DNA of 64,000 bases from Acinetobacter phage Ab1-TPeters. The position numbers were made by a program, and so were the translations under genes. Below the pieces are notes generated by a model that saw only the letters and a program-made list of their open reading frames with translations, had not been told where the DNA came from and did not search any database. Positions within the stretch are counted from its first letter, which is position 1, and every line of letters begins with the position of its first letter. Location: the sequence record PP763253.1. One strand, given 5' to 3'. Below are positions 22,238-41,112 of the stretch, piece by piece.

Positions 22238-22270
22238 AGCTCTTGATTCCGGTCAAGAGCTTTTTATTTT
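22238..22270 (+). terminator. rho-independent terminator
   Basis: AGCTCTTGA-TTCCGG-TCAAGAGCT hairpin followed by TTTTTATTTT. Confidence 0.5.
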
Positions 22271-22296
22271 GTAATAAACAACGTAAGAGAAATGTA

Positions 22297-26375: not shown

Positions 26376-26742
26376 AATGATTCATCATAACTTAACGATT
26401 CTTGAGGGAGCGATTATTAAAGTAGAGCAGTGTTTTAGTAACACTGTCTCTCTTTCTCAAGAAAACAAATCAAATCCTATCTTACGTAAGATTAACCTTA
26501 ATAGAAATGGATTTATTCTAACTCCTAAAACTACAGTGCATATTCAAGTTGGATTTGATTATGACTACTGTGCTTACCATTTAAATGATGTGAAGCCATC
26601 TAAAGCAGTTCGTGAAAGTAATTTAATTTTAAATAATTTTTACGTAGATGAAGGAAAGACGTTTGTAACTGTAACTAATATGAATTCTTCTAATTCTGTG
26701 AGACTAGAACCTGGTGAGGTTTTAGGCTCTATAATGATGTAA
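26350..26742 (+). CDS. hypothetical protein (possible dUTPase-like fold; start probably ATG 26377)
   Basis: C-terminal VRLEPGEVLGSIMM loosely resembles a dUTPase C-terminal motif; weak. Confidence 0.25.
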   Translation: MIKLLYGIKMIHHNLTILEGAIIKVEQCFSNTVSLSQENKSNPILRKINLNRNGFILTPKTTVHIQVGFDYDYCAYHLNDVKPSKAVRESNLILNNFYVDEGKTFVTVTNMNSSNSVRLEPGEVLGSIMM

Positions 26743-26778
26743 AAAGCTGTTTAATAAAAGAAGTGTAAGGAAAACGTA

Positions 26779-29700
26779 ATGACCAAATTTTTGACTGACT
26801 TGACTTTACAAGATCAGGCTGTTTTTATTCTGTTATCTCAAACCAACAACTCAAGAGCATTTGAGAATGGTTATGCTGCTGACTTCTTAAATTTTGTTAC
26901 TATTAACTCTCCTCATCGAATTGGTTATGTTGAAATTACCAATGAAAATGAAGAGCATGTTCTTAATCAAGAAGAAATTTCTAAGTTGAAAGATTTAGTT
27001 GGAAACCGTAAGGTTATTCTTTTAGGTAAGAACACAGTAAAAGCAATTGCTGGTGAGTTGATTAACAACCGAGTTCGTTATTTATCTTTGTTGGATATGT
27101 CATACTTGACTTGTGCTAACTTAGGTAAAGTAGCGATTTGTGGTCACCCAATGTCTTACAAAGACGTCTTTAAAGGAAATGTTGATGCTCAACAGAAACT
27201 TATTCTACGTGTTGATGAGTTAATTCAGCCACGTGCTAAAGAATATGAAGTTGAAATTGTAGCTCCCTCACTGGACGATCTTGAAGACATCTTAAATCTA
27301 TGTGCCAATCAACCAGCCATTGGTTACGACATTGAAGCAAACGATTTAGATATTTGGGCAGCTCACTGGGAAAAGAACTTATTTAGTCTGTCAGTGTTCG
27401 AATCAGAATCTAAACTTATGTCATTCTGGTTTAACTGGCGTGAATTTACTTCGGATCATAAGAGATTATTTGAAAATTTCTTAGATAAGAATCAGTCTAA
27501 AATTTGGACTTACAACTGTACATATGAAATCCAAGCAGCTTGGAGAGTCTTCGGTAAACGTTACTTATTTCAAGATGCTTTGATCTTAACTACTATGGAT
27601 GCTAACCGTGGTGATCTTAAGACTAACGCTCGTAAGTATTTGAAATGTGATTTCTGGGAAGATGAGCTAGCGAGTATTCGTGATGTTTATGAAGCCTTTT
27701 TCAAATTATTCTTAGATAAAGGTAAAAAGAATTCAATACATGATGAGTTCAAAGCTTTTGTTAAATCAGATCAATTCCAGAATTTAGATAATCTTCGTGA
27801 GTTTCTGATTTCTAAGGGTAGAAAACCAGAATGGATGAATGATATTAATGATTTAGCAGTTGCTTTAGGTGAAGATGAAGTAGTCAAAGGTATCTCTGAA
27901 TTTCCATATCAGTGGTCAGCAGTTCCATTCGACATTTTAGGTAAATACTGTTGTTACGATTCAGCTTACACTCTGCCAATTGCAGCTAAACTGTACGGTA
28001 AGTATGAGAAAGGATATAAACATTACATCAAACACCCTTGGTTAGCTTGTATCTTTGAAGCATGGGGATGTGGTTGGGATGAATCTAAAGCTAAGGAAGT
28101 TGAGAAAGATTATTTACGTTTGATGAATGAATCTCTAAGTGAATTGATCTTAAATCTTCAACCTAAGTTAGGTCTTCGAGCTCTAGATGTTAAACCGATT
28201 CTTCAGTGGAAATTACCACATGAGGCTACTTCATACACAGCTACAGGTAAAGAACGTAAACATAAGGTGTTGTCTGAGTACGATCGTCATGGTTGGATTA
28301 AAGGTATTTACAATCCTGGTTCAAACACGGCTGATGCTCGAGCTGTATTCTGGGATGTTTACTTAACAGAACGAGTTGAGTTAGCAACATTTGCATATAC
28401 TCTTGTCAATGATCTTCGATTCAGAGGAATCTGGGAGAAGTTACTGATTAAGATGATTGAAATGACAGAGTTCAAGTCTAAAGATGAAAGTAAGACTGAG
28501 AACGAATTCTTAACTGAATATGGTGCAGCTCAAGTTCTTGAAATGTTGTCAGTATTCTTAGAAAATCCAAATTTAACTGATCGTGAGACAGTTAAGATCT
28601 TGGCTTCTAGTTTCACTGAGACGAATAAGACCTATAAAGACAATACTGGACGTAACGCTAAAGAAGTAATGGCAGCTCAGTATGAGATTCAATGTCAATT
28701 CTTTGGTGTTGACATTGATGATGAATCTACTTGGACTCCTGAATTCAAGATTCTATTCTTACTTCAGAAATATAAGAAAGTAGCGAAAGCTCTGTCTACT
28801 TATGTTAATGGTAAGTTAGGTCGAGGATGTGTATGGTTGTCTAAAGTATTTCCAGATCGTCCTCCAGTTCGATTGAAACCTTATCATGAGGTTGAGGAAG
28901 GATATAAACTTAAACTTGATGAGAAGTTAATTGCATTCTATGACTTTAATAGTTTGTCTGCATCAACTCACCGTTGGGGATCTGGATTCCATACTATTAG
29001 CCCAGGTGTAGCTATCCGCAGTGCTTTAGTTCCGTACTACAGCAATCAGATCTGGACTCATATTGACTTTAGTCAGGCTGAGTTGGTGATGTTGGCATTC
29101 TTCAGTCAAGACCCTAACATGATTAAAGTATTCATGGAAGGTGGAGATATGCACAGATATGTAGCTAGTCTAGTGTATCAGAAGAAGCCTGAGGATGTTA
29201 CTTCAGAAGAACGTCGTGTAGCTAAGACAGTATCATTTGGTATTGTTTACGGTAAGGGTATTGAGAACTTAGCTCTAGAAATCACTGGAGGTGATGTTCC
29301 TCGTGCTCAAGCAATTTTCGATGCTTTCTTCGTGTCATTCCCTGGAATCAAGAAATGGATGGATGAGCGTAAGACTCAAGGTCGTGAAACAGGTAAGGTG
29401 ACTAATCTGTTTGGTGCATTGATTGAGGTGGAAGATGGCTTCAGTAAAGGTAACGCTATTGATCGTCACTCAGTAAACTACCCAATCCAGTCTTCATCTT
29501 CAATGGTTGCTGGTGGTTCAATGTACGACTTGTGTTCTACAGTTGACCAACAAGGAATCTTTGGAACTGGAGTTGGATTCGTGCACGATGCATTAGATCA
29601 TACAGTTGATATCGACAATCTGGTTAACTTCTTAGTTTATTCTAAGAAAGTGATGCAGGATCAAGTTTATGAAGAACTTGGTACTCCGATGAAGATTGAC

Positions 29701-29988
29701 CAAGAGATTGGTGCGACAGCTCTAGACTTATGTGAGCTGAAGAGCTTCACTGAACTTGAAAATGGTTTAGAAATCATTCTCGGAGGTGACGAAGAGGCTG
29801 TAAATAAACTGGTTGACAAGTTTAGAGTAGAGAGTGCTAAGTACGTTATTGACAACACTGAAATCATTGACAGTTCAGACTCATATACATCTTGGGAAGG
29901 ATTGTTTACTGAGAAAGGTGCATATAGTTCAGATCGTGGTCAAACGTTAAAGAAAGTTAAGACTAAAGTGACTCTTCGCTATAGTTAA
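26779..29988 (+). CDS. family A DNA polymerase with 3'-5' exonuclease domain
   Basis: 1069 aa; Exo I IGYDIEAND; motif A HIDFSQAELVM; motif B RRVAKTVSFGIVYGKG; motif C FVHDALDH. Confidence 0.85.
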   Translation: MTKFLTDLTLQDQAVFILLSQTNNSRAFENGYAADFLNFVTINSPHRIGYVEITNENEEHVLNQEEISKLKDLVGNRKVILLGKNTVKAIAGELINNRVRYLSLLDMSYLTCANLGKVAICGHPMSYKDVFKGNVDAQQKLILRVDELIQPRAKEYEVEIVAPSLDDLEDILNLCANQPAIGYDIEANDLDIWAAHWEKNLFSLSVFESESKLMSFWFNWREFTSDHKRLFENFLDKNQSKIWTYNCTYEIQAAWRVFGKRYLFQDALILTTMDANRGDLKTNARKYLKCDFWEDELASIRDVYEAFFKLFLDKGKKNSIHDEFKAFVKSDQFQNLDNLREFLISKGRKPEWMNDINDLAVALGEDEVVKGISEFPYQWSAVPFDILGKYCCYDSAYTLPIAAKLYGKYEKGYKHYIKHPWLACIFEAWGCGWDESKAKEVEKDYLRLMNESLSELILNLQPKLGLRALDVKPILQWKLPHEATSYTATGKERKHKVLSEYDRHGWIKGIYNPGSNTADARAVFWDVYLTERVELATFAYTLVNDLRFRGIWEKLLIKMIEMTEFKSKDESKTENEFLTEYGAAQVLEMLSVFLENPNLTDRETVKILASSFTETNKTYKDNTGRNAKEVMAAQYEIQCQFFGVDIDDESTWTPEFKILFLLQKYKKVAKALSTYVNGKLGRGCVWLSKVFPDRPPVRLKPYHEVEEGYKLKLDEKLIAFYDFNSLSASTHRWGSGFHTISPGVAIRSALVPYYSNQIWTHIDFSQAELVMLAFFSQDPNMIKVFMEGGDMHRYVASLVYQKKPEDVTSEERRVAKTVSFGIVYGKGIENLALEITGGDVPRAQAIFDAFFVSFPGIKKWMDERKTQGRETGKVTNLFGALIEVEDGFSKGNAIDRHSVNYPIQSSSSMVAGGSMYDLCSTVDQQGIFGTGVGFVHDALDHTVDIDNLVNFLVYSKKVMQDQVYEELGTPMKIDQEIGATALDLCELKSFTELENGLEIILGGDEEAVNKLVDKFRVESAKYVIDNTEIIDSSDSYTSWEGLFTEKGAYSSDRGQTLKKVKTKVTLRYS

Positions 29989-29996
29989 TTAAGATT

Positions 29997-30022
29997 GGGA
30001 TTCTTCGGAATCCCGATTTTTA
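29997..30022 (+). terminator. rho-independent terminator
   Basis: GGGATTC-TTCG-GAATCCC hairpin followed by GATTTTTAG. Confidence 0.55.
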
Positions 30023-30050
30023 GGGCAGTTTGAAACTCGCAAATGAGTCT

Positions 30051-30184
30051 AAAAGCTGTTTCTTAGAAAGTGTTGAAGCCTGTTCTTTTTACAGGGCTTT
30101 GGCACTTTAGGTGCAGGATAAAGTAGGGGAAACAGCTGTTTTCCTGTCTCTTAAAAGTTGCTAAAACCTGTTTCGTTGTAGGGG
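30051..30184 (+). promoter_or_regulatory. two tandem copies of the conserved intergenic element upstream of the RNAP-associated operon
   Basis: AAAAGCTGTTTCTTAGAAAGTG + GAAGCCTGTTCTTTTTACAGGG, then AACAGCTGTTTTCCTGTCTCTTAAAAGTTG + AAAACCTGTTTCGTTGTAGGGG. Confidence 0.45.
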
Positions 30185-30212
30185 TTATATTTTCTTTTAT
30201 GATCTTGCTATT

Positions 30213-30824
30213 GTGTTCTTAATTTTTGTTCGGGTATTTGTAATGTCTTCAGAAAGGCAATCTACTTTAGCTCTATCCTTAAATGAGTTAGAGTTTATTA
30301 ATCCAGATGCATACTTAAATGCGTCTAATTCCACCTCCTTACGGGATTTCGATTATTGGCATTCGCGTGCAACTAACAACGCGAGCTATACCGAGAACCT
30401 TATTCAGGAGGAGTATCGTCGTCAGTATCCGAATTACGATCGCGTAACTCAGATGCATTCCTCGTCAACTGAGGTAACACCTGGAATGAACGGGGGTTCA
30501 GTCCAGAGTTTAATTTCAAGTGCAATACCTGAAATTGATCCTCAGAAAGAGTCAGAGTTTTTGATTCTAGTTCAATCTATCTTGAATAGGTTTGATTTCT
30601 TCGAAAATGAGCAGAAATTGAATCTTATTAAGGTATTTGGTTTTACTATCAATGCCGCTGGCTTATCGACACATCATCCAGACCTAGTTGAGCATGTCTC
30701 TCACTTTAGAGAAATTAAGTTTCCTAATATAGCTGATTTACATCGGTATGTTGGATCACGAACTAAAGCAGATGAAGCACGTAAACTTTTCAAAAACATT
30801 GCAGCAGAATATTTCTTAGGGTAA
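30213..30824 (+). CDS. hypothetical protein immediately upstream of RNAP beta-prime (possible start ATG 30243)
   Basis: 203 aa; position suggests it may be co-transcribed with the RNAP subunit gene. Confidence 0.35.
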   Translation: MFLIFVRVFVMSSERQSTLALSLNELEFINPDAYLNASNSTSLRDFDYWHSRATNNASYTENLIQEEYRRQYPNYDRVTQMHSSSTEVTPGMNGGSVQSLISSAIPEIDPQKESEFLILVQSILNRFDFFENEQKLNLIKVFGFTINAAGLSTHHPDLVEHVSHFREIKFPNIADLHRYVGSRTKADEARKLFKNIAAEYFLG

Positions 30825-30830
30825 TTAATA

Positions 30831-32144
30831 ATGAATAACCGTATCAACCTAGTATTAAGCGTAGCTCGTGATTCAGACATCCGCAAGACTACCAATGGGG
30901 AAGTAACTAACATCGGTTTATATAATTTTAGATTCAAAGAGCCTGTTCCATTTGAGGGTGGATTATTCTGTCAAAAGATTTTTGGGCCAATCAAAGACTA
31001 CACTTGTGCATGCGGTGCACGTAAAGGTGGTAAGACAGTTGATGGTAAAGCACCATCTTGCGAGATCTGTGGGGTAGATCTAGTGAAGTCTGAGGTTCGT
31101 TCAAAACGTGAAGGTTATATTGATGCGAAAGTACATTATGTAAATGCATATGCAATGCCACTCTTGGGTGCAATTCTTCAAATTGGTGAGGGTAATATTG
31201 AAGGAATATGCAATGGTACTATGTATTTCCGTTTTAAAGAATCAATGAACGGTCTTCGTTCAATGTCTGGTAAGTTTTATTCAATTGAGCTATCAAAAGA
31301 AGACAAGACTTGGGGTACTTCTGCTGAGGAGCTCCTGGATGCAATTCAAGATCTTGATTTGGATTCTGCTTACATTATGAAGAACTGCAATAGCCGAGAC
31401 GTGAATCGCTATCACGATAAGGGTTACACTATTTCAGACTTCTTCTGCTCTCACGTGCGAGTGTCCCCTCCACGTACTCGTGATATGTCCGTAGTAAATA
31501 AGGATATATCATTTCACCCAGTAAACAACATCTACGCTCGTATCGTTCGAATTGGAGCACGAGTAGCAACTTTAACCAACCAGATTCTGGAATATGATGG
31601 TGAGTTAAACTTAGAGCAATTAAAACAAGTGATTCGTGGTGAATCAATTGTGCTCCAAGCGCTAATTGATGCCTTGTTGTTTAAAGGAGCTACAGATTAC
31701 CGTGGAAATGAGATTCCATCAGTTATCTCTTCACTTGGAGGTAAGGAAGGTATCGTCCGTGGTAACTTACTGGGTAAACGAGTTGACTTCTCTGGTCGAT
31801 CTGTGATCATTTCCGGACCTGAACTTCCGTTAGATACAATCGGTGTTCCTTGGAAAATGATGTATGAGTTGCTTAAGCCGTTTATTCTGAATAAGCTAAT
31901 TGAGCATCTTGAGGATCTTGATGGTATTTTAACCAGCCAGACTTTGAAGAAAGCTCGAACTATGTATGCTAACAAGAGCACAGAAGCAATGATGTTTATG
32001 CGAGAGTTAGCAGACAGACACTGGGCATTCTTGAATCGTGCACCGTCACTTCACAGATACTCAGTAATGGCGTTCAAAATACAGCTTCACAGTGGTAAAG
32101 CAATTAAGCTGCCACCTATGCTTTGTTCACCATTCAACGCGGAT
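30831..32144 (+). CDS. multisubunit RNA polymerase beta-prime subunit, N-terminal half, exon 1
   Basis: Zinc-binding CACG...CEICG region aligns with E. coli beta-prime C70-C88; GKRVDFSGRSVIISGPEL aligns with [36 protein letters not shown] aligns with LLNRAPTLHRLGIQAFEP; exon ends ...PFNAD, the first three residues of the catalytic NADFDGD motif. Confidence 0.85.
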
Positions 32145-32504
32145 TAATCCCAAGCAGAGTCCGCCCAGATTAGAAATGATTTGGACAAAAACTTCCTTAA
32201 TTGCTGGAACGTCCTTAATGGATAATCAGCAGCTGGGTTCAATTATGAACAGAGTTCAACGACTATCGAAAGCCGATTTAGAGTGGGGACAATCTAAATT
32301 GAAGCAAGTAGAGTACAGCCAAGCGGTAGGTTGTTACGTGGAATGGCGTAACAATAATTCCTTTAAATGGAAACAGGAAGACCTAATCACTGTAGACCAC
32401 AGTGTAAGGATATGAGATAGTCTCAACGTTCTATAGTAATATAGAGCAGTGTTTATAGCCAATAAACACGGTCGTAAGCTAGCGATTTACGATGAAGATA
32501 ATTG
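32145..32504 (+). other. group I self-splicing intron (ORF-less, 360 nt)
   Basis: 5' exon ends in U32144. Internal guide GUCCGC (32159-32164) pairs with exon GCGGAU, with a U-G wobble at the splice site. P7 halves CAACGACUAUCG (~32256-32268) and GAUAUGAGAUAGUCUC (~32409-32425) form GACUA/UAGUC. Terminal G at 32504 sits immediately before exon 2, which encodes FDGDQMAIH. Confidence 0.8.
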
Positions 32505-32678
32505 TTTGATGGGGATCAAATGGCAATTCACCTTATTCTTAGTTGTCAAGCAATGGATGAAGTCGAGTTCATTCGTGTTCAGAACAACCGTATGAATTCT
32601 ATTAACTGGGATACACCTTTACTCGCTCCGAGCCATGAGCAGATTGTGGGCTTACTTGAATTAACTTTGGGCGAATAA
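32505..32678 (+). CDS. RNA polymerase beta-prime N-terminal half, exon 2
   Basis: Translates FDGDQMAIHLILSCQAMDEVEFIRVQNNRMNSINWDTPLLAPSHEQIVGLLELTLGE; aligns with E. coli [55 protein letters not shown]; stop at 32676-32678, so the subunit is split here. Confidence 0.8.
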   Translation, partial: FDGDQMAIHLILSCQAMDEVEFIRVQNNRMNSINWDTPLLAPSHEQIVGLLELTLGE

Positions 32679-32688
32679 GGAGAGATTT

Positions 32689-33042
32689 ATGTTTATTTCA
32701 GAAGAAAAGATTTTACATCACATTTGCTCTAAGAATGAGTTCAATCATTACGTAGGGGAAGATGAGAATATTACTGAGAAACGCCTTCTTGACAGATTAT
32801 GTCAAGAAGGGAAGATAACTCTGATTTCAGAGGACTCTGCTCAACAATGGTACCTTCCTACTAATATCGGGAGATTAAGAGATCTTGAGTATAAAGTTAA
32901 TTATAGAATTGCAGCTAAGCTAAATATGCCTCACTGGATTTCAGTTAAATTAGGTAATCTTATAAATTCCTTCTATCAGGATAACGATTACGTTAACTAC
33001 GCCAGGTGTCTAAATTTACAGAAAAAGGTAGATAAAAAGTAG
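32689..33042 (+). CDS. hypothetical protein
   Basis: 117 aa ORF with AGGAG RBS. Confidence 0.3.
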   Translation: MFISEEKILHHICSKNEFNHYVGEDENITEKRLLDRLCQEGKITLISEDSAQQWYLPTNIGRLRDLEYKVNYRIAAKLNMPHWISVKLGNLINSFYQDNDYVNYARCLNLQKKVDKK

Positions 33043-33043
33043 C

Positions 33044-33091
33044 AAAAGCTGTCTCTTAAAAAGTGCTAAAACCTGTTAAGATGTCGGGGGG
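33044..33091 (+). promoter_or_regulatory. conserved bipartite intergenic element copy
   Basis: AAAAGCTGTCTCTTAAAAAGTG...AAAACCTGTTAAGATGTCGGGGGG then GGGGGGATTTTCCCCTCG hairpin. Confidence 0.45.
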
Positions 33092-33122
33092 ATTTTCCCC
33101 TCGCTTAAAACAGGAGTTAGTT

Positions 33123-33353
33123 ATGTTTGGCAAATATCAGTTAACTGTCGTGGTAAATGGGTTCAACTCTTTCATTATTTCTGCAAACGTTAATAAGTAT
33201 AGTGAATTGGTTGAAAAGTTTGAACAATATGCTAATCAGAAATATGCTGGGTTCAAATTCGAAGAAGTTTCTTACAAAGAGCCTGTCATGAAAAGCTCAA
33301 AAGAAATTCGACTTAATCGCGACGAAAACTTCGAAGTAATTACACTGGATTAA
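33123..33353 (+). CDS. hypothetical protein
   Basis: Start moved from 33063 (inside conserved intergenic element) to ATG 33123 after RBS CAGGAG. Confidence 0.3.
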   Translation: MFGKYQLTVVVNGFNSFIISANVNKYSELVEKFEQYANQKYAGFKFEEVSYKEPVMKSSKEIRLNRDENFEVITLD

Positions 33354-33355
33354 AA

Positions 33356-33700
33356 ATGAAACACCAAAACAAATTAATGTTAATGTCTAAATCGGAATCT
33401 TTAAAACCAGCTCTTCGTGGCTTCTTATTGGAGAGCGTTAAGCAAAATGATCTTAATAGACCAGCTTATCTTGATAATTTTGTTAACTCAGGGATATTTG
33501 GGGTAGTTGAAAAACAACGAGTGAAGATATTAAAATCAGATCGGTCAGATCTCTTAGTAGCTGGTGTGATTTATGACTTATCTAGAGTTCTTGAAATTAA
33601 TGAAATTCTTAATAATCTAAAACCAGCTGAAGCTGAAATTGAAATGACCTTTGAAGATAAATTTATGGCTTTCTACGCTGGCGGTAGTCATATTCACTAA
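33356..33700 (+). CDS. hypothetical protein
   Basis: 114 aa ORF. Confidence 0.3.
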   Translation: MKHQNKLMLMSKSESLKPALRGFLLESVKQNDLNRPAYLDNFVNSGIFGVVEKQRVKILKSDRSDLLVAGVIYDLSRVLEINEILNNLKPAEAEIEMTFEDKFMAFYAGGSHIH

Positions 33701-33709
33701 GGAATATAT

Positions 33710-34441
33710 ATGAATAAACGTATCTCAGATCATCTTCTTAAAATTTCTGAATTGAAAAGACTTGCCAAACATAACTCTTATCAATATGGATCTTACAGGA
33801 AAGCAGCTGATGTAATTAGAAATCTAAACTTCGAACTAACTCCGGATTATGATTTCAAATCACTTCGTGGAGTAGGAGCTGCAATTGATTCTGAAATACG
33901 TGAATTCTTAGAGTGTGGTGATAAAACCCCAAGATTCAAAAAGTACTACTCTGAAATCTCAGCTGAGTATATTGCCAATGACGAAGAAGTTAAAGATTCT
34001 ATTCTTGACTTCTTTACGGAATTTGGTAGTGACTACAAGGTATCTGTAGCTGGTTCAATAAGAAGAAACTCACCTTTCATTAGGGACGTTGATTTACTAA
34101 CTACAGCTCCAGCTAAAGTAATCTACGACATGTTAGAAAAATCTGCTAGATTTGAATACGTCTATGGGGCAGATCGTAAGGTTAGATTCAAAGACGTATT
34201 TCTTGATCTGGAATATGACATCAAGATGTGTCCTGAAGAGTCATGGATCCCTTGTTTACTGCACTCAACTGGATCAGCGGCACATAATATCCAGATGAGA
34301 GCTAGAGCCAAGAAGCTCGGTCTTACTCTAAATGAATACGGTTTATTTGACAAAGACAAACCTGTTAGGCAATGTTATACAGATGAGCGTGAGATCTTTG
34401 AGGATCTTGGAATGATTTATATCTCTCCGGAGTATCGCTGA
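33710..34441 (+). CDS. minimal family X DNA polymerase (Pol beta-like)
   Basis: 243 aa; HhH-like LRGVGAAIDSEI; VAGSIRRNSPFIRDVDLLTTAP matches Pol beta GSFRRG...DMDVLLTHP; C-terminus LHSTGSAAHNIQMRARAKKLGLTLNEYGLF...EREIFEDLGMIYISPEYR matches Pol beta YFTGS..FN..MR..A...G..LNEY.......E..IF..L...Y..PE.R. Confidence 0.6.
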   Translation: MNKRISDHLLKISELKRLAKHNSYQYGSYRKAADVIRNLNFELTPDYDFKSLRGVGAAIDSEIREFLECGDKTPRFKKYYSEISAEYIANDEEVKDSILDFFTEFGSDYKVSVAGSIRRNSPFIRDVDLLTTAPAKVIYDMLEKSARFEYVYGADRKVRFKDVFLDLEYDIKMCPEESWIPCLLHSTGSAAHNIQMRARAKKLGLTLNEYGLFDKDKPVRQCYTDEREIFEDLGMIYISPEYR

Positions 34442-34491
34442 GAGCTCAAAAATGAGCTCAAAAGCTTTTTAAGTGTAATGGAGGCTTCGCT

Positions 34492-34761
34492 ATGAAACTA
34501 ACAATAGAAACTGACCAAAATATAAAGTCAGTAAAACTGGAAATTGAGTTTGAAGGTGGTTCAGTAACTAAAACTTCTCAGAATTTTGTTACTGAAAATT
34601 CAACAACTCAAAATCACGTTCACTCTACACCTGTAGAGTCACCTAAACAGTTTGAAGAAGTAAAACCTGTTAAGCGTGAAGTTAAAGAAATACATCAGGA
34701 AGACAAGCCTGAAGAAAGAGCACCTAACATAGATTCTGGCATGATGGATACAACAATATGA
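34492..34761 (+). CDS. hypothetical protein
   Basis: 89 aa ORF. Confidence 0.3.
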   Translation: MKLTIETDQNIKSVKLEIEFEGGSVTKTSQNFVTENSTTQNHVHSTPVESPKQFEEVKPVKREVKEIHQEDKPEERAPNIDSGMMDTTI

Positions 34762-35621
34762 AAATTATTCGATCTTACTTTTTCAGCAATGCTTTTAAGT
34801 ATGAAAACATAGAGCCAACTAAAGATAATTTAGTTAAATTGAAAGAGCAATATGAAAAAGTAACTGGCTTAGCTGTAGTTGACGATATTATTACTGATTT
34901 TGATATGATTGAAGAAATTGGTAATTTTGTTGAATCCAATAACTTTAAATCTCCAGATCAACATTCTAGTTTTAAAGCTGGTCCAATTGCTAGTGATTAT
35001 TTTCGCTTTATTTCAATTACGAAGGCTTTTGAGGCTCGAGAGATTGGAGATGAAGTGTTCTATGTTGATAGTGACATGGTTTTCAGTGATAAAGCTAAAG
35101 AATTCTTTAAAGGTAAGCTAGGTAATGATAAACCTAAGATGAAAACTATGTGTATTTCATCTTTATCAGCAAATGGAAGTAGAATTAGTGGTTACGTCGA
35201 GCACTGGTTTAACGGTATCTTCCAGACTAATATGGCTGCAGCTTACTTAATGCTGCATTGCATTGAATATATTCTTTTTGAAGATGACTCCAATATCGAT
35301 GAGAAACTCAAAAATGACCTCAACAGCTTTTTAATTAGAATGAAGAATCGTCAGAAAGTTCCTTGGGGTCTGATTGGAACTAGACTTATGGAGTTCTTAG
35401 TTAAAACTGGCCGACTTGAAATTATCCAAGATAATTCTATGACTTCAGTTGTCCTAGGAACTTATACTAACAAGTTTATCCGTGAAAACACTAAGCTTGA
35501 CGTAAACGTTCTACTAAATCATATTGATACAGCTAATACTGCTAATAATAGAAATTATGATTTAGACATTGTAATGACTAACACTGGGTTTAACCGAGTT
35601 TATTTATTGGATTTCAAATGA
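34758..35621 (+). CDS. putative GT-A fold glycosyltransferase (DxD motif)
   Basis: 287 aa; FYVDSDMVF resembles the DxD nucleotide-sugar binding motif of GT-A/GT8-like transferases; first gene of a sugar-nucleotide cluster; weak. Confidence 0.3.
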   Translation: MKIIRSYFFSNAFKYENIEPTKDNLVKLKEQYEKVTGLAVVDDIITDFDMIEEIGNFVESNNFKSPDQHSSFKAGPIASDYFRFISITKAFEAREIGDEVFYVDSDMVFSDKAKEFFKGKLGNDKPKMKTMCISSLSANGSRISGYVEHWFNGIFQTNMAAAYLMLHCIEYILFEDDSNIDEKLKNDLNSFLIRMKNRQKVPWGLIGTRLMEFLVKTGRLEIIQDNSMTSVVLGTYTNKFIRENTKLDVNVLLNHIDTANTANNRNYDLDIVMTNTGFNRVYLLDFK

Positions 35622-35926
35622 CTCTACATATTAAGAACATCACTAAGGAAGGTCGTCTAATTAAACAAGACGATCGTTATACAGTAACTGACGTTAATCA
35701 TCTTAATAATCTTACTGTTTCAGAAACTGTTTTGAATGCAGGTAAAGCTACTTCTGGTCATTCACACGATGGTTTGGAAGAAGTCTACATGTTCACCAAA
35801 GGTTCTGGTTTAATGGAGCTAGGTGAGCCTAATTCAGAAGGTTTCGAGATCAATACTTATGGTGTTGAAGCAGGAGATACAGTTTGTGTCCCTGCAGGTT
35901 GGTTTCACAAGGTACTCAACAATTAA
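35618..35926 (+). CDS. cupin-fold protein (possible sugar-phosphate isomerase)
   Basis: Both canonical cupin motifs are intact: G-HSH-DGLE-EVYMFTK-G and G-DTVCV-P-A-G-WF-H-KVL-N. Confidence 0.6.
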   Translation: MTLHIKNITKEGRLIKQDDRYTVTDVNHLNNLTVSETVLNAGKATSGHSHDGLEEVYMFTKGSGLMELGEPNSEGFEINTYGVEAGDTVCVPAGWFHKVLNN

Positions 35927-35963
35927 GAGTCAACTCTAACATTTACAGCGATTTTCCAGAAAT

Positions 35964-36437
35964 ATGAGCGATAAGAAAGTCATTGGCTTTACTTGTTCAA
36001 CTTTCGACTTACTGCATGCTGGTCATGTAGTAATGCTCGAAGAGTGCCGCAAGCATTGCGACTACCTAATTGTTGGTCTTCAGAACGACCCTACACTGGA
36101 TAGACCAACTAAAAATAAACCAATACAGAGTATCATTGAACGTCAAATTCAACTGCGTGGTTGCTCCTACGTGGATGAAATTGTTGTTTACAACACTGAG
36201 GCTGATCTGGTAGATCTTCTCTTATCTTATAATATTGATGTGAGAATTTTAGGTGTTGAATATCAGAAAGCTGAATTCACTGGAAAGCAAGAATGCTTAG
36301 ATAAGGGAATTCACCTCATATTTAATTCTAGAGATCATTCTTTCAGCTCTTCTGAGTTACGTAAACGAGTTCATTCAGCTGAAGAATCAAAGAGATCAGA
36401 AATTTCTTTTACTGAGGATCAGTTTCGTGAAAAATAA
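35964..36437 (+). CDS. cytidylyltransferase-fold sugar-phosphate nucleotidyltransferase (TagD / HldE-C-like)
   Basis: FDLLHAGH (HxGH) motif; YLIVGLQNDPTLDRPTKNKP and YVDEIVVY...DVRILGVEY follow the TagD / HldE domain II pattern. Confidence 0.65.
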   Translation: MSDKKVIGFTCSTFDLLHAGHVVMLEECRKHCDYLIVGLQNDPTLDRPTKNKPIQSIIERQIQLRGCSYVDEIVVYNTEADLVDLLLSYNIDVRILGVEYQKAEFTGKQECLDKGIHLIFNSRDHSFSSSELRKRVHSAEESKRSEISFTEDQFREK

Positions 36438-37182
36438 AAAGATTTTAATATTTGACGTAGATGGAACTGTGGTTGAATCCTGTCAAGTTCTTGAAGGTGA
36501 AATGCTTAAAGTTCTATCTAAGATAGTGACTAATGGTATTCCAGTTGTATTTATGTCAGGTACAGATAATGCTGAACTTGAACGAATGGTTGGTCTGCCT
36601 TTATCTTCAGTTAGCTGTAATAGCCGAATCTATCTAGCAGGTAATTCAGGTGCTGAGATCTATAAACTAAGCACTGGGTTTATAAAAACTGAAGCTGCTT
36701 TAGAGTTTCGTAAATCACTTGACCTTTCTAGTAAGTCAAATATTCTTAAAGCTGTAGCTAATGCTATCAAGAAATTTGAACTTAAGTGTGAGATCGGTGA
36801 ACAAGTAATTGACCGTGGTAATCAAATTACTTTATCTTGCATTGGACGTAAAGCTCCATCCGAAGATAAAGCTAACTGGGATCCTGACTGTACTAAACGA
36901 AATGAAATAGCTAGTTACATTAAAGGCAAACTTGGTGTTAATTACTCTGTCACTGTAGCTGGTACTACGTCAATTGATATTACTTCAGATAGCTGGGATA
37001 AGGCGGACGGAGTAAGAAAGATTGCTGAGCTGGAAGGTATTGAACTTAAAGACATCTTCTTCTTCGGAGATAAATGTCAAGTAGGTGGTAATGATTACCC
37101 AGCTGCAGCTATCGTTGATCATTGTCATGTCAAAGATCCATCAGAAACTCTTTCTATTTTAGAAACCCATTTTATTGTATAA
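36427..37182 (+). CDS. HAD-family phosphomannomutase-like enzyme
   Basis: N-terminal ILIFDVDGTVVES (DxDGT); C-terminal FFFGDKCQVGGNDYPAA resembles eukaryotic-type PMM FFGDKT..GGND.E. Confidence 0.55.
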   Translation: MKNKKILIFDVDGTVVESCQVLEGEMLKVLSKIVTNGIPVVFMSGTDNAELERMVGLPLSSVSCNSRIYLAGNSGAEIYKLSTGFIKTEAALEFRKSLDLSSKSNILKAVANAIKKFELKCEIGEQVIDRGNQITLSCIGRKAPSEDKANWDPDCTKRNEIASYIKGKLGVNYSVTVAGTTSIDITSDSWDKADGVRKIAELEGIELKDIFFFGDKCQVGGNDYPAAAIVDHCHVKDPSETLSILETHFIV

Positions 37183-37198
37183 TTGAGGCAAGTGTAAA

Positions 37199-38140
37199 AT
37201 GAAAATCCTCGGACTTGATTTAGGTTACGGACACAACAAATGCTGTTATGGTGAGGATGGAAAGATTAAGAATCTTTTCAAAATACCATCTGTTTTAGCT
37301 AATGTTGAAAAACATGAACTGGCTAACGACAAACGAATTGTTGAATTTGAAAATGAACATTACTACGTGGGTGATGACGCTCTAGCTGTAGCTAGTAATC
37401 AAATTCTTGATATTAACAGCTATGCTAAACTTGAATTTGCTGCTCCTATCTTTATTTACAAAGTATGTAAGGATCTTGACATTAACCCAGATCGTTTGGT
37501 TCTTGGTTTATCTATTGCTCAGATTGCTAACTCTGGTTATTTCAAAGAGCGCATCGAGAAGTTCTTAGTTTCAAATGGCATTGAATGTGAAATTCTTTTA
37601 GTGCCTCAAGGTATGATTGCTAAGCTTGCTATTGATAAGTATGGCTTCAATTTTCCTACTGAGACTACTGAATTTGAATCACTTCGTAACTACGTAGGTG
37701 TGGATATCGGATTTAACACTCTGGATATCTTTCAAGTAACCAATGGAAAAACTTCATCTAACTTAGTTCGCGGTATTGAAGAGCGTGGTATTCAAGTAAT
37801 TGTTCACCGTTTGCTTACTGATATTAAGAACAGACTCGGAGTTAACCTTACCGTAAGTGAAGGCAAAGAGGTTCTAGATAACGGATTCCTTCGTCGACGT
37901 GGTAAGAATATTGATTTCTCTGAAGAGATAAATAAGCAAGTTAAAGTTTATGCTGAAGAACTAAGCGTTTTAATTGAAAACGAGTTTGGTGAAGTTCTTA
38001 ATAAATCTGAAGCTTTAGTTCTTTTCGGTGGTGGTAGTTACTCACTTAAATCACTTGAATCTTCATTTGTCAAAATTCCTGCTCAAAAAGCAGAGTTTTA
38101 TAACGTAATTGGTTTTTACTTATTCGGGGATCGTAAATAA
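37199..38140 (+). CDS. actin-like ATPase (ParM/Alp-like)
   Basis: Phosphate-1 ILGLDLGYGHNK, phosphate-2 VGVDIGFNTLDI, adenosine motif LVLFGGGSYSL. Confidence 0.55.
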   Translation: MKILGLDLGYGHNKCCYGEDGKIKNLFKIPSVLANVEKHELANDKRIVEFENEHYYVGDDALAVASNQILDINSYAKLEFAAPIFIYKVCKDLDINPDRLVLGLSIAQIANSGYFKERIEKFLVSNGIECEILLVPQGMIAKLAIDKYGFNFPTETTEFESLRNYVGVDIGFNTLDIFQVTNGKTSSNLVRGIEERGIQVIVHRLLTDIKNRLGVNLTVSEGKEVLDNGFLRRRGKNIDFSEEINKQVKVYAEELSVLIENEFGEVLNKSEALVLFGGGSYSLKSLESSFVKIPAQKAEFYNVIGFYLFGDRK

Positions 38141-38766
38141 TGAATCGATATACTCCATTATCTGAATCAGCTGTAACCGTATGTGATATTGAAACACTAG
38201 GGCTGGATACTAATAACGGTAGCGTAGTTGTTTCAATTGGTTTAGCTACAATTAAAAATAAAATGATTGTAAGCACTAAAGAATGGCTACTAGATATTAA
38301 TCACCTAGAGCATTCTGGCTTTGGTAGAGATGACTCAACTATTGAATGGCATGCTAAGTTACCAAGTGAAACTTTCGAGATTAATTTCCGTGAAGGAGAA
38401 AGACTTGCTCCGTCAGTTGCTATAAAGGAATTTAGTGATTATGTTACTAAATTAAATGAAACTGAAGAAATGCACTTCTTAGTTGGTAATTCACCAGACT
38501 TTGATTTTGGAATGCTGGGTCACTATCTGAATAAGTTTGATATTGATCGCCCTTGGAAGTATTTCCAGCTACTAGATTTCAGAACTCTAGCAACTACCTT
38601 CGGCTTATCTAAAGACTTAAGAGACAGATCAGCAAGATTTGCCTCTGCGATGACTGAACAATACCCTCATAACGCACTATATGATGCTGTTTATGAAGCA
38701 GCTATTTTTGTGTCATTTATTGAGCGATCAGAAAAACTTCGTGAACTCGATAAGGCTCCAGCTTAA
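38140..38766 (+). CDS. DEDDh 3'-5' exonuclease (DnaQ-like)
   Basis: Exo I VCDIETLGLD, Exo II VGNSPDFDFGML, Exo III HNALYDAVYEA. Confidence 0.55.
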   Translation: MNRYTPLSESAVTVCDIETLGLDTNNGSVVVSIGLATIKNKMIVSTKEWLLDINHLEHSGFGRDDSTIEWHAKLPSETFEINFREGERLAPSVAIKEFSDYVTKLNETEEMHFLVGNSPDFDFGMLGHYLNKFDIDRPWKYFQLLDFRTLATTFGLSKDLRDRSARFASAMTEQYPHNALYDAVYEAAIFVSFIERSEKLRELDKAPA

Positions 38767-38827
38767 TCTTCGGATTGAGCTTAAAAGCTTTTTAAATTGT
38801 AATCCCGCCTAACTTTATGGAACAACC

Positions 38828-39466
38828 ATGTCTAAGCCTAAACTAAAACCTGCAGTACTTTGTTTGACTAAATCAGTTCTTGATCTAGTTCAGATCCCTG
38901 AAAATGCGAAAGGCATTTTCTCACTTAATTTAAGTGAAGTAGCTGCAGATCAATTCCACTTTATTAATCGATCAGTTGTAGACAACGTTAATGACCTAAC
39001 CATCGGTAAAGCTTTCCCTCACTTAATTGGTTATGTTACAGTTAAATTAGGAGATAAATACCTAAGTTACTCTCGTGAAAATACTGGCGGTGAGACTCGA
39101 TTAGCAGGTCGTCGCTCAATCGGTATTGGTGGTCATACTGACATTGAAGATGTAGTTATTTCAGAAGGTGGTCATATTGATGCTACCTCAACTTTAGAAA
39201 ATTCTATCTGTCGTGAGCTTGAAGAAGAAATTGGTCTGGATTTGTTCAATATTCGAGCTGAGCGTTTCGATAGCTTAATTGTTGACAGAACTGACGAAGT
39301 TGGTTCTGTTCACTTAGGTGTTCCTTTAATCATTGAGATTAAATCAGAAAACGAAATCATTAAAACTGATGAAGTTCATGATATCCAGTGGTTAACTAAG
39401 GAACAATTGTTAGCAGACTTTGATGCATATGAGAACTGGAGCAAAATTGTGATCGAGAGTCTCTAA
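38828..39466 (+). CDS. putative Nudix hydrolase
   Basis: Approximate Nudix box GGH...E.SICRELEEEIGL; weak. Confidence 0.35.
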   Translation: MSKPKLKPAVLCLTKSVLDLVQIPENAKGIFSLNLSEVAADQFHFINRSVVDNVNDLTIGKAFPHLIGYVTVKLGDKYLSYSRENTGGETRLAGRRSIGIGGHTDIEDVVISEGGHIDATSTLENSICRELEEEIGLDLFNIRAERFDSLIVDRTDEVGSVHLGVPLIIEIKSENEIIKTDEVHDIQWLTKEQLLADFDAYENWSKIVIESL

Positions 39467-39473
39467 TATTACC

Positions 39474-39510
39474 GAGGAAGCTGTAATAAACCAGCTTCCT
39501 CCTTATTATT
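39474..39510 (+). terminator. rho-independent terminator
   Basis: GAGGAAGCTG-loop-CAGCTTCCTC 10-bp stem followed by CTTATTATT. Confidence 0.5.
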
Positions 39511-39521
39511 GGAGTTCAGAA

Positions 39522-39935
39522 ATGATATCTGAAAGTATTTTATGTTTAGCTGCAGTTATTTTTCATGAAGCTAGAGGTGAACCTGAATTAGGTAAACTAG
39601 CAGTAGCAAATGTAGTTATAAACAGAACTAAAACTAGAAACTTGAATGAATGTCAAGTTGTTAAACAGAAGAGACAATTTTCATGGTACAGGGGTCAATC
39701 TCAAATAGACAAAATGAGAAATCCTAAATATGAAGAATATCTTAAATTAGCAAATAAAGCTAGGGCAAGAGACGTTACGAATGGAGCTACTTTCTTTCAC
39801 GCAACGACAGTCTGTCCAAATTGGTCTTACTATCTAATTAGATCCAAGTCAATTGGAGGTCACAGGTTCTATAGAGAATTAGATACTAAGTCCAATTCAA
39901 CCAAAAGGAGAATCAATAATGATTGCAGGTGGTGA
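39522..39935 (+). CDS. cell wall hydrolase, SleB family
   Basis: AAVIFHEARGEPELGKLAVANVVINR matches the SleB/Hydrolase_2 signature (EARGE...AVA.VV.NR). Confidence 0.65.
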   Translation: MISESILCLAAVIFHEARGEPELGKLAVANVVINRTKTRNLNECQVVKQKRQFSWYRGQSQIDKMRNPKYEEYLKLANKARARDVTNGATFFHATTVCPNWSYYLIRSKSIGGHRFYRELDTKSNSTKRRINNDCRW

Positions 39936-40509
39936 ATTAATTGAACACTGCATAAAAGAGAAGTTATGGCATTTTGAGAGTGTTGATGGAGCTAAAGCTC
40001 ACGTTGGCCCAAACTCATTAGATGTTCGGTTGAATTCACATTTTCTTGTAATGACTTCTCCTACCTCATCAGAACCATTTGATATAACTTTAGATGAAGA
40101 TAGTCGTAAGTTGTTTAATGAAGTCGAAGCTAATGAAATCATAGTGAATCCTGGAGATTTCATTTTAGCTTGCTCAATGGAAAGAATTGACTGCTCTCAG
40201 ACTATCGGAGTTAAGACTCAAGACGATATCACTGTTCCAATGATATTTACTCAACATTATGACGGACGAAGCACATTGGCTAGATTAGGTCTTCTGTCGC
40301 ATGTATCAGCTGGTTTTGGTGATTTTAATTTCAAGGGTGCGTTTACTTTAGAAATTAAAAATCTAGGAAATTACCCTTTAGTTTTACGAAAAGGTATGCG
40401 AATAGGTCAAGTCTATTTTGAGCAAACCTTATTTCCTAAGAAGTATGAAGGTTACGATCAAACTGACTTCAAACCAGCTTACCCTAGAACAGGCTCTGGA
40501 CGATTCTAA
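39919..40509 (+). CDS. dcd: dCTP deaminase (dUTPase-fold)
   Basis: GRSTLARLGLLSHVSAGFGDFNFKG...TLEIKNLG...LRKGMRIGQVYF matches Dcd conserved blocks (GRSSLARLGL..H.TAG.IDPG...TLE..N...I.L..G..I.Q..F). Confidence 0.75.
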   Translation: MIAGGELIEHCIKEKLWHFESVDGAKAHVGPNSLDVRLNSHFLVMTSPTSSEPFDITLDEDSRKLFNEVEANEIIVNPGDFILACSMERIDCSQTIGVKTQDDITVPMIFTQHYDGRSTLARLGLLSHVSAGFGDFNFKGAFTLEIKNLGNYPLVLRKGMRIGQVYFEQTLFPKKYEGYDQTDFKPAYPRTGSGRF

Positions 40510-40760
40510 TGATTTTAAGTATCGAACATATATCTGGTAGATTATCAGAAGTTAATCTTAGCGAATTATCTGATTGTAAATTCTGTAAATCAAAACCAGA
40601 ATGGTTTAATCAGGATCAGATATTTGTATTAAGATGCTCATTCTGTAAATCTGTATCTAAAGGTTTCTTATGTAGACCTTGCATGAAAGAAGAGTCTGAC
40701 ATTGACTCAGCTATCTTTAAATTAACTAGTGAATGGAACACTAAAAATGACACCAAATGA
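40509..40760 (+). CDS. cysteine-rich small protein (putative zinc-binding)
   Basis: CKFCKS...CSFCKS...CRPC cysteine pairs. Confidence 0.3.
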   Translation: MILSIEHISGRLSEVNLSELSDCKFCKSKPEWFNQDQIFVLRCSFCKSVSKGFLCRPCMKEESDIDSAIFKLTSEWNTKNDTK

Positions 40761-41070
40761 TCCTATTGTTTTAGTACTTGCTGGAGCTTACGAGCCATCT
40801 GAACGTGATTTGGATACCCATGCTCAACACTTGAATAAGAAACGTGAACAAGCTGTGGCTCAACTTATGAAAATTGATTCTGAGTTAGAACAAGTAGCTG
40901 AGTTGAAGAACAGCTTAGCTAGAGCTAACTCTGATGAAATTACTGCAGAGGTTGTGGCTAAAGTCTGTAGTTCAATGCTTCAAGGACGAGTTCTTAAAGA
41001 CTCTGATGTACCGAAAGAAATGGTTAGTAAAGCTAAATTCTATTTAGCTAAATATGGATTCGCTGGATAA
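40729..41070 (+). CDS. hypothetical protein
   Basis: 113 aa; last + strand gene before the bidirectional terminator. Confidence 0.3.
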   Translation: MNGTLKMTPNDPIVLVLAGAYEPSERDLDTHAQHLNKKREQAVAQLMKIDSELEQVAELKNSLARANSDEITAEVVAKVCSSMLQGRVLKDSDVPKEMVSKAKFYLAKYGFAG

Positions 41071-41112
41071 GTCCAATAAAATAGGGAGCCTAGGCTCCCT
41101 ATTTTATTGGAC
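41071..41112. terminator. bidirectional rho-independent terminator (42-nt perfect palindrome)
   Basis: GTCCAATAAAATAGGGAGCC/TAGGCTCCCTATTTTATTGGAC between convergent + and - gene blocks; flanking A/T runs give U-tracts on both strands. Confidence 0.7.

Follow-up and report, generated by a model that had tools for sequence, protein, structure and literature searches.

Several phages are already known to activate a sugar and to transfer it to an oxygen on C5 of a pyrimidine, among them T4, RB69/DLP3/HY126, SP-15 and Carin-5. In the RB69-type pathway, a central ketose phosphate is the source of a nucleoside diphosphate sugar (NDP-sugar), from which the sugar is attached to a C5 oxygen on DNA (PMC13326640). 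For SP-15, a gene set has been proposed for glycosylating 5-(4',5'-dihydroxypentyl)uracil (PMC5977210, Table 2), and its cupin glucose-6-phosphate isomerase (GPI; gene 11, PF06560), phosphomannomutase (PMM), glucose-1-phosphate uridylyltransferase and glycosyltransferases were all assigned by the authors to DNA modification (PMC5977210). The thymidine of SP-15, YerA41 and Carin-5 carries a linker, phosphate and several sugars (PMC12686479; 10.1101/2025.03.26.645540); such sugar-hypermodified thymidine, also found in RP13, prevents sequencing as well as the action of restriction enzymes and polymerases, and its biosynthesis is unsolved according to the Carin-5 authors (PMC12686479). Here we analyzed a 64,000-nt stretch of the genome of Acinetobacter phage Ab1-TPeters (sequence record PP763253.1; the whole stretch is hereafter called the window), in which a small open reading frame (ORF), orf89, and four genes, A to D, are best explained as a single unit with coupled translation that belongs to the arm for replication and nucleotide metabolism; the phage is an SP-15/RP13-like myovirus. 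Within 2.4 kb the cassette combines three predicted sugar-activation enzymes with one candidate transferase, which makes it the most compact candidate pathway considered here. What is new are its enzymes (a minimal cupin, an HAD mutase that replaces a kinase and a phosphatase, a nucleotidyltransferase of the HIGH fold and, as candidate transferase, an orphan) and their union in one coupled unit. We propose, with a probability of roughly 45%, that the cassette activates a sugar and that A transfers this sugar to the phage's own DNA. The ORFs of the unit are as follows.

34492-34761, + strand: orf89, 89 codons, encoding a small, acidic, low-complexity product; its stop codon overlaps the start of A (ATGA).
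34758-35621, + strand: A, 287 aa, an orphan and putative DXD-type sugar transferase.
35618-35926, + strand: B, 102 aa, a minimal cupin of the cupin-type phosphoglucose isomerase (PGI) family, predicted sugar-6-phosphate aldose-ketose isomerase.
35964-36437, + strand: C, 157 aa, a HIGH-motif (cytidylyltransferase-fold) nucleotidyltransferase, predicted sugar-1-phosphate nucleotidyltransferase.
36427-37182, + strand: D, 251 aa with a GTG start, an HAD-IIB protein of the PMM/alpha-phosphoglucomutase (alpha-PGM) type, predicted mutase converting hexose-6-phosphate to hexose-1-phosphate.

A first-pass annotation, made from the letters alone, had described A to D as four adjacent, overlapping + strand ORFs. 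All four are present at exactly the coordinates it gave, and every motif it quoted was found (the DSD of A, both cupin motifs of B, the HxGH of C and the PMM-type region of D). The overlaps are real for A/B (4 nt, ATGA) and for C/D (11 nt), but not for B and C, which lie 37 nt apart in the window because of an in-frame TAA within B. Their orthologs in contig L005, which comes from a phage ~72% identical at the DNA level, overlap by 11 nt, and the order orf89-A-B-C-D-ParM-like-exonuclease is retained there; the ParM/Alp7A-like actin homolog directly 3' of the module, which lies at 37199-38140 in the window, is kept as well. A second contig, L010 from the public Logan assemblies, is 100% identical to positions 26479-41096 of the window. 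The pairwise ratios of non-synonymous to synonymous substitution rates (dN/dS) between the window and L005 were 0.125 for A, 0.127 for B, 0.074 for C and 0.186 for D, and this purifying selection indicates that all four are real genes. The position of orf89 is also kept in L005, with 41% amino acid identity and a dN/dS of 0.35; it had no match in PHROGs and possibly belongs to the module.

Among the closest parallels, SP-15 follows the same logic as the window phage with partly the same protein families, having a cupin glucose-6-phosphate isomerase, a hexose-phosphate mutase, a hexose-1-phosphate nucleotidyltransferase, glycosyltransferases and a 5-hydroxymethyl-dUMP (hm-dUMP) synthase, and belongs to the same DNA polymerase lineage. 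The details differ: the SP-15 cupin has 226 aa and is only weakly alike B (23% identity over 61 aa), its nucleotidyltransferase bears the annotation UTP-glucose-1-phosphate uridylyltransferase and is not of the C type, and its genes are scattered rather than gathered in a cassette, with none homologous to A. We found no HAD-type relative of D in SP-15, and a tblastn search re-run at E 10 added nothing. The RP13-like phages Carin-5, YerA41 and RP13 resemble the window phage in their family A DNA polymerase (PolA), family X DNA polymerase (PolX), ligase, thymidylate synthase (TS) homolog and dCTP deaminase, and Carin-5 holds a homolog of A; the sugar genes proposed for these phages (#174-179 in Carin-5, which include a glucose-1-phosphate thymidylyltransferase-like enzyme) are not homologous to B, C or D. 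In the arabinosyl-5-hydroxycytosine phages RB69, DLP3 and HY126, a phage isomerase, an HAD enzyme, a nucleotidyltransferase and glycosyltransferases are likewise clustered with a TS homolog and a nucleotide kinase. These phages, however, use an SIS-fold isomerase, a kinase with an HAD phosphatase (AfhE/AfhF), a MurU/GalU-fold nucleotidyltransferase and GT-B transferases, and their TS homolog carries N177D and D169N, neither of which is found in the window's TS homolog. We therefore ruled out an RB69-type (Afh) arabinose pathway, since the folds of B, C and D differ and the TS homolog keeps Asn177 and Asp169.

D is the clearest assignment among the three activation enzymes. It scored 44.8 bits against PF03332 (PMM; cut-off 22.4) over residues 93-246, which bears out the phosphomannomutase-type C-terminus that had been read in this HAD enzyme, and it also matched PF08282 (2.9e-12) and TIGR01484 (HAD-IIB; 65.4, cut-off 41.8). 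The best PDB match was 4bnd, the alpha-PGM of L. lactis (2.4e-21), aligned over the full length (residues 2-246) and followed by PMM1/PMM2 and by fungal and protist PMMs. Together with the DVDGT nucleophile motif and the GDK..GGNDYP motif, these profiles and the full-length match place D among the eukaryote-type PMM/alpha-PGM proteins of HAD-IIB; as far as sequence can tell, its signature is that of a phosphomannomutase/alpha-PGM and not a plain phosphatase profile. A genome scan for D returned three loci in metagenome-assembled genomes (MAGs), whose neighbors (gmhA-hldE or GalT-like) do not settle which sugar is handled. In a Desulfovibrionaceae MAG (L012, 5965-9408), a gene for a D homolog (34% identity) converges on gmhA (SIS) and on hldE, which has PfkB and cytidylyltransferase-like domains, possibly a hint that some PMM-like HAD-IIB proteins work in heptose activation.

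C belongs to the cytidylyltransferase-like HIGH nucleotidyltransferases, with 52.3 bits against PF01467 (cut-off 21, E 8.7e-14), 53.1 against TIGR00125 (cut-off 27.7) and an HxGH motif at H18-A-G-H21. Its matches to TIGR02199 rfaE_dom_II (1.4e-19, 70.4 bits, equivalog cut-off 181.5) and to TIGR01518 TagD (3e-14, 53.2 bits, equivalog cut-off 165.4) agree with the earlier description of an HldE/TagD-like enzyme. It also matched phrog_7878 (6.4e-33), and its best PDB matches were the ethanolamine-phosphate and glycerol-3-phosphate cytidylyltransferases ECT and TagD. These similarities place C in the HldE-II/TagD/ECT clade, as a separate, largely phage-borne branch, and C-type nucleotidyltransferases are present in 132 phage records. 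The case named in advance as fatal to a sugar pathway, that C is an FMN or NMN adenylyltransferase, finds no support in the scores: the NMNAT, NadD and CoaD models of NCBIfam gave 2e-6 to 0.09, mostly above 1e-4. On these weak scores, set against those of rfaE_dom_II and TagD, we ruled out an NMN, FMN or CoA adenylyltransferase.

B is indeed a cupin with both canonical motifs, G42-x5-H48-x-H50-x4-E55-x6-G62 and G86-x5-P92-x-G94-x2-H97-x3-N101 (read from the translation), and scored 25.4 bits against the GPI family PF06560 (cut-off 20.7). The best PDB matches of its intact ortholog were archaeal cupin PGIs (1.3e-5), with the four metal ligands (His/His/Glu/His) aligned. In this alignment H48, H50, E55 and H97 of B correspond to the metal ligands H88, H90, E97 and H136 of the Pyrococcus enzyme. 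The profile score and the four ligands are those of a cupin-type PGI. Members of the B family have 117-118 aa and cover only positions 66-132 of the 182 in the profile, whereas characterized enzymes have ~190 aa; because B is minimal and lacks the flanking parts of these enzymes, we use the word isomerase for a predicted function. B is 72% identical to a protein of an Acinetobacter T4-like phage, and a genome scan for further relatives of B returned none.

The in-frame TAA at 35924-35926 (codon 103) shortens B to 102 aa, and in the PGI alignment the lost segment corresponds to the final core strand of the cupin barrel. The same TAA is present in L010, which may derive from the same phage stock, while L005 has a Ser codon there. 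The remnant of the gene can still be read behind the stop.

35927-35974, + strand: what was once the 3' end of B, with 15 codons still in frame (ESTLTFTAIFQKYER) and a stop TAA that overlaps the start of C.

Of the 15 residues of ESTLTFTAIFQKYER, 14 match the intact 118-aa ortholog of L005, with five synonymous changes and one non-synonymous change (dN/dS ~0.05), and the codons after the stop are also conserved with the copies of Acinetobacter phages. Given this conservation, the TAA is either a recent or a tolerated lesion, or it is a sequencing error that both assemblies share. The interconversion of fructose-6-phosphate and glucose-6-phosphate is also a host function, and therefore the pathway could still run. 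Stop-codon recoding was ruled out, since ORFs as long as 1069 aa run without interruption and the window holds no tRNAs.

That B, C and D would form one route to an NDP-sugar, as isomerase, nucleotidyltransferase and mutase, is a well-supported inference from their family assignments and from the fusion and adjacency of their homologs in other phages. In Acinetobacter phage vB_AbaM_3098 (L009, 3962-4735), a single protein of 257 aa, annotated as hypothetical, joins a C-type HIGH nucleotidyltransferase to a B-type cupin domain, the latter 39% identical to B (E 3e-22). The Acinetobacter T4-like phage AB1I1M-1 has adjacent homologs of B and D (72% and 51% identity), a few genes from a TS homolog, a TAGT-type glycosyltransferase and a T4 beta-glucosyltransferase; no C or A homolog was found beside this pair. 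T4-type glucosylation of 5-hydroxymethylcytosine resembles the pathway proposed here in that a sugar is placed on a hydroxymethyl pyrimidine, and AB1I1M-1 has its B and D homologs near a hydroxymethylase and glucosyltransferases. T4 differs in using UDP-glucose of the host and in accepting cytosine. C homologs keep similar company: in cyanophage S-B43 one lies beside a cupin of the phosphomannose isomerase (PMI) type, an NDP-hexose 4,6-dehydratase (RmlB), an RmlC-type epimerase and further epimerases, and in Vibrio phage 1.031.O one lies two genes from a DXD glycosyltransferase. In Agathobaculum phage AB434P2 (L008, 769-5582), the order is thymidylate-kinase-like, choline-kinase-like, C-type nucleotidyltransferase, hypothetical, TS homolog, hypothetical; despite its annotation as a dUMP hydroxymethyltransferase, the TS homolog carries Asp in place of ThyA N177, which makes dCMP its predicted substrate. 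The C family is thus tied more than once to DNA-modification loci. If C makes NDP-hexoses, a phage gene widely mis-annotated as 'TagD' or 'HldE' gains a function.

Which sugar the route would supply can be stated only tentatively. Glucose is a reasonable candidate at somewhat less than even odds and is at least as likely as mannose, which stands next to it, and heptose is possible with a clearly smaller chance. The manno-sugar of the first-pass annotation is not favored, because B and D have glucose enzymes as their closest characterized relatives, namely cupin PGI and alpha-PGM. For the DNA sugars of SP-15, too, its authors proposed PGI, PGM and glucose-1-phosphate uridylyltransferase (PMC5977210). 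For mannose speak the matches of D to PMMs and the nucleotidyltransferase-cupin fusion of phage 3098, which mirrors the type II PMI-GMP (phosphomannose isomerase-GDP-mannose pyrophosphorylase), itself a bifunctional enzyme. For heptose speak HldE domain II as the best curated model of C and the bacterial D homolog that adjoins gmhA and hldE. The bacterial pathways to GDP-mannose (type II PMI-GMP and PMM) and to ADP-heptose (GmhA-HldE-GmhB) run through the same sequence of isomerase, C1-phosphate formation and nucleotidyltransferase. They differ from the cassette in that C is far below the HldE-II cut-off, the cassette is without a kinase, B matches the GPI and not the PMI family, and the nucleotidyltransferase fold is not that of ManC.

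The surroundings of the cassette favor DNA as the target. The window is a piece of a myovirus genome with two converging arms, replication and nucleotide metabolism on the + strand and sheath, baseplate and tailspike on the - strand; the module is located in the former, opposite the tail and baseplate arm. Synteny with E. coli phage IME392 extends over the kinase, TS homolog, HD nucleotidase, primase, helicase, PolA and RNA polymerase of the replication backbone. No integrase or repressor was recognized among the scanned ORFs (many small ORFs were never checked), and the phage appears lytic. The genes that bear on nucleotide supply and replication are these.

20439-21170, + strand: thymidylate-kinase-like P-loop kinase, predicted hm-dUMP kinase (AAA_28, 1.9e-8; phrog_2107 'thymidylate kinase', 3.8e-8).
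21180-22229, + strand: TS homolog (PF00303, 1.1e-15; best PDB match the CMP hydroxymethylase MilA, 2.2e-18).
22243-22980, + strand: HD-domain YfbR-like 5'-deoxynucleotidase (PF12917, 3e-15).
39919-40509, + strand: dCTP deaminase (PF22769 DCD, 4e-29).
17376-19217: NAD-dependent ligase, part of an SP-15-like PolA/PolX/ligase triad.
26779-29988, + strand: SP-15-like PolA, 1069 aa, marking the group of phages whose thymidine is sugar-hypermodified.
33710-34441, + strand: PolX (DNA_pol_B_thumb, 2.9e-19; HHH_8, 5.7e-11), directly upstream of the module.

The hydroxymethylase-like gene that had been pointed out earlier is real and has the signature of a dUMP hydroxymethylase: the TS homolog has Asp at the position of ThyA L143 and keeps Asn at N177 and Asp at D169. 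By published criteria, Asp at L143 marks a hydroxymethylase, Asn at N177 a uracil substrate, and Asp at D169 an enzyme that is not a 5-hydroxycytosine synthase (PMC13326640). Its closest phage relatives include IME392, EP_H11, RP13 and ViI-like phages; the kinase gene lies directly upstream, and IME392 has an orthologous kinase-TS pair. The dCTP deaminase would be the source of dUTP and hence of dUMP for the hydroxymethylase, and the HD nucleotidase is a candidate for excluding a canonical deoxynucleoside monophosphate. Given the TS residue pattern together with the thymidylate-kinase-like gene, the deaminase and the nucleotidase, the phage very probably makes 5-hm-dUMP; YerA41, EP_H11 and IME392 have the same gene set with a dCTP deaminase (Table 1, PMC12686479). 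The SP-15-like group is defined by a PolA accompanied by PolX and ligase (10.1101/2025.03.26.645540, PMC12686479), and the window phage has the long PolA, PolX and DNA ligase of this cluster as well as the genes for 5-hm-dUMP synthesis. The best phage matches of its PolA are RP13, IME392, EP_H11, Rhizobium RHph phages, LIS04 and phiLo. Its best PDB match is 9qhs (5e-55), and 9qlh (1306 aa; 8.4e-21) is outranked by many ordinary Pol I enzymes (~2e-23); judging from lengths and names, 9qhs and 9qlh would be the polymerases of phiLo and YerA41.

A has very few relatives. The known family comprises three members: the window protein, P0002 of L005 (70% identity) and XPT09236 of Cobetia phage Carin-5. 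In two protein libraries (5.8 billion and 1.84 billion sequences), only P0001, which is identical, and P0002 matched. XPT09236 (#097) is the sole homolog outside this pair (25.6% identity, E 1e-9), and lies 4 nt from a polysaccharide pyruvyl transferase gene, #096 (L002, 5974-7686); the Carin-5 authors did not assign #097 (PMC12686479). Word-indexed searches with the single sequence and with a three-sequence profile yielded nothing beyond these three members, scans of IMG/VR and the JGI metagenomes returned no relatives, and a Megablast comparison of this region with 50,697 phage records gave no match. Three blocks are invariant in A, P0002 and the Carin-5 protein: K2-I3-x-R5-x-Y7-F8-F9, S79-D80-Y81-x-R83 and Y102-V103-D104-S105-D106. 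The last reads as an acidic, putatively metal-binding DXD motif at the end of a putative hydrophobic strand, preceded by an SD..R segment of the type of a nucleotide-binding helix. This SD..R...YVDSD arrangement resembles the 'ASDxxR...YxDxDM' of TcdB/GT32, a likeness that we take as a lead. On the grounds of the sole outside homolog being in Carin-5, the coupling to B, the invariant acidic motif and purifying selection, we give the reading of A as a transferase a little under even odds. Should A be one, it would represent a new family of DNA-modifying enzymes and a tractable entry to pathway reconstitution; an intact copy of the cassette is present in a related phage, and the A homolog occurs in a phage whose adduct was weighed by mass spectrometry. 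As an aside on that adduct, the thymidine of Carin-5 carries an unexplained residue of 216 Da, and a pyruvate-ketal deoxyhexose would give 146 + 70 = 216 Da, which is speculation.

In the mechanism that we propose, B would convert a ketose phosphate, most simply fructose-6-phosphate, into an aldose-6-phosphate (glucose-6-phosphate or mannose-6-phosphate), D would shift the phosphate to C1 to give the aldose-1-phosphate, and C would turn the latter into an NDP-hexose. A would then transfer the sugar to the hydroxyl of 5-hydroxymethyluracil in DNA, derived from the phage TS homolog, or to that of a linker built on it, and the modified thymidine would block host nucleases. The genes with their synteny and selection, the families of B, C and D, the hydroxymethylase signature and the kinship to T-hypermodified phages are observed, whereas we infer which substrates, nucleotide and sugar are used, what A does and that DNA accepts the sugar. 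The most likely target is the phage's own DNA, which would be protected from host nucleases; this choice follows from the PolA/PolX/ligase triad, the TS signature with the nucleotide genes, the chemistry of SP-15, YerA41 and Carin-5, the SP-15 gene set assigned to DNA modification, and the location in the replication arm. DNA glycosylation had also been the favored hypothesis of the first-pass annotation, and it gains support from the SP-15/RP13-like backbone, the dUMP-hydroxymethylase signature and the A homolog of Carin-5. The simplest product would be a hexosyl-5-hydroxymethyluracil, chemically akin to base J of kinetoplastids, although the hydroxymethyluracil of base J arises by oxidation of thymine in DNA and not from dUMP, and the product here is hypothetical. 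A has no similarity to a Pfam glycosyltransferase family; no comparison aimed at the J glucosyltransferase was made. The most specific form of the proposal, a base-J-like hexosyl- or heptosyl-hydroxymethyluracil written onto phage DNA by a new DNA glycosyltransferase family A by way of a minimal cupin, an HAD mutase and a hexose-1-phosphate nucleotidyltransferase of the HIGH fold instead of the GalU/RmlA fold, is doubtful when taken as a whole.

A number of results weigh against sugar transfer to DNA by A. The GT-A glycosyltransferase previously read into A is not borne out: neither it nor the other two family members had a Pfam match at E 10, NCBIfam and PHROGs gave none, a PDB profile search at E 10 was empty, an exhaustive phmmer search of 1.84 billion representatives recovered A alone, and significant similarity to any glycosyltransferase family was not found. 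Alignment with the Vibrio phage DXD glycosyltransferase by hhalign gave a probability of 0.2%, AlphaFold2 gave no usable model of A or P0002 (predicted local distance difference test scores of 39.6 and 41.8 from a two-sequence alignment), and the DXD-type motif is short. C lies below the equivalog cut-offs of both HldE domain II and TagD, and no HIGH-fold nucleotidyltransferase is known to use alpha-glucose-1-phosphate or mannose-1-phosphate. B is shortened by its premature stop and, as judged from sequence, lacks the N- and C-terminal parts of characterized cupin PGIs, so that a full ~190-aa PGI domain with its flanking segments was not found; the absent parts include the phosphate-binding segment. 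B, C and D were absent from the other SP-15-like phages examined.

Each of the rival explanations is less consistent with the combined context than a DNA target. B, D and C might serve precursor supply only, raising the pool of hexose-1-phosphate or NDP-hexose that host enzymes or a DNA glycosyltransferase encoded at another genomic locus would draw on, with A unrelated. Acinetobacter T4-like phages with recognized DNA glucosyltransferases do have B and D without A or C, A is without glycosyltransferase similarity, and the window is 64 kb of the genome; yet A is translationally coupled to B in an order kept in L005, and its Carin-5 homolog abuts a sugar-modifying pyruvyl transferase, and we regard this explanation as unlikely. 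Somewhat less probable is remodeling of the host envelope, in which the NDP-sugar and A would modify lipopolysaccharide, capsule or a surface glycan for superinfection block or receptor display. This is how published work on jumbo phages and cyanophages has interpreted similar clusters, in which a cupin isomerase, a HIGH nucleotidyltransferase and a glycosyltransferase occur together, a further point against DNA, and both the best curated match of C, an ADP-heptose enzyme domain, and the bacterial D homolog beside gmhA and hldE would fit. The module, however, sits amid replication and nucleotide-metabolism genes of an apparently lytic phage, in a group characterized by DNA glycosylation, and A has, judged by eye, no membrane or lipid-carrier features.

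Some mycobacteriophages glycosylate virion proteins with their own enzymes, and a sugar-activation pathway would serve equally well if A decorated capsid or tail proteins with the NDP-sugar. We consider this improbable, since the module is on the strand and arm opposite to the tail and baseplate genes and its promoter-like motif, described below, is common to helicase and NUDIX genes. C could instead be TagD/ECT-like and make CDP-glycerol or a similar compound, from which A would transfer a phospho-alcohol: its best PDB matches are the corresponding cytidylyltransferases, SP-15 encodes a CDP-glycerol glycerophosphotransferase, and the adducts of Carin-5 and YerA41 contain phosphate and a C3H7O5P ion. 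Such chemistry leaves the coupled cupin, the PMM-type mutase and the B-C fusion unexplained; rfaE_dom_II also scores above TagD, C-family genes adjoin NDP-hexose dehydratase and epimerase genes in a cyanophage, and we think it still more improbable. Lastly, the TAA at 35924-35926, also found in L010, could mark a module that is being lost and is inactive in this phage. With A, C and D intact at low dN/dS, the 15 codons after the stop conserved and an isomerase of the host able to replace B, decay appears the least probable of these explanations.

A promoter-like repeat precedes the unit.

34454-34472, + strand: GAGCTCAAAAGCTTTTTAA, a promoter-like repeat that lies 20 nt upstream of orf89.

Within three mismatches, GAGCTCAAAAGCTTTTTAA has four + strand copies (at 24643, 34454, 35316 and 38777) where 0.07 were expected; one falls within A, and the other three are immediately upstream of the helicase, orf89/A and NUDIX genes. 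The copy at 34454 is a probable start of the transcription unit, and no terminator-like site was found between 34441 and 39474. A bipartite motif, TGTCTCTTAAA-N8-AAACCTGTT, has nine + strand copies against 0.03 expected.

4926, 11206, 13130, 15511, 19637, 20401, 30057, 30145 and 33050, + strand: copies of TGTCTCTTAAA-N8-AAACCTGTT, apparently intergenic, in the early arm.

This motif probably marks a class of promoters used by the RNA polymerase of the phage. A sigma-70 promoter scan was uninformative, with 29 sites against 29.8 expected, and the phage encodes its own RNA polymerase. Elsewhere in the early arm, a NADAR-domain protein is encoded at 8035-8508. A group I intron at 32135-32446 on the + strand (Rfam RF00028, 66 bits, E 1.6e-14, full-length model) interrupts a gene for a subunit of the multisubunit RNA polymerase (ORF 30831-32147 and ORF 32502-32678), and the IME392 ortholog of the split gene is uninterrupted and matches both flanks.

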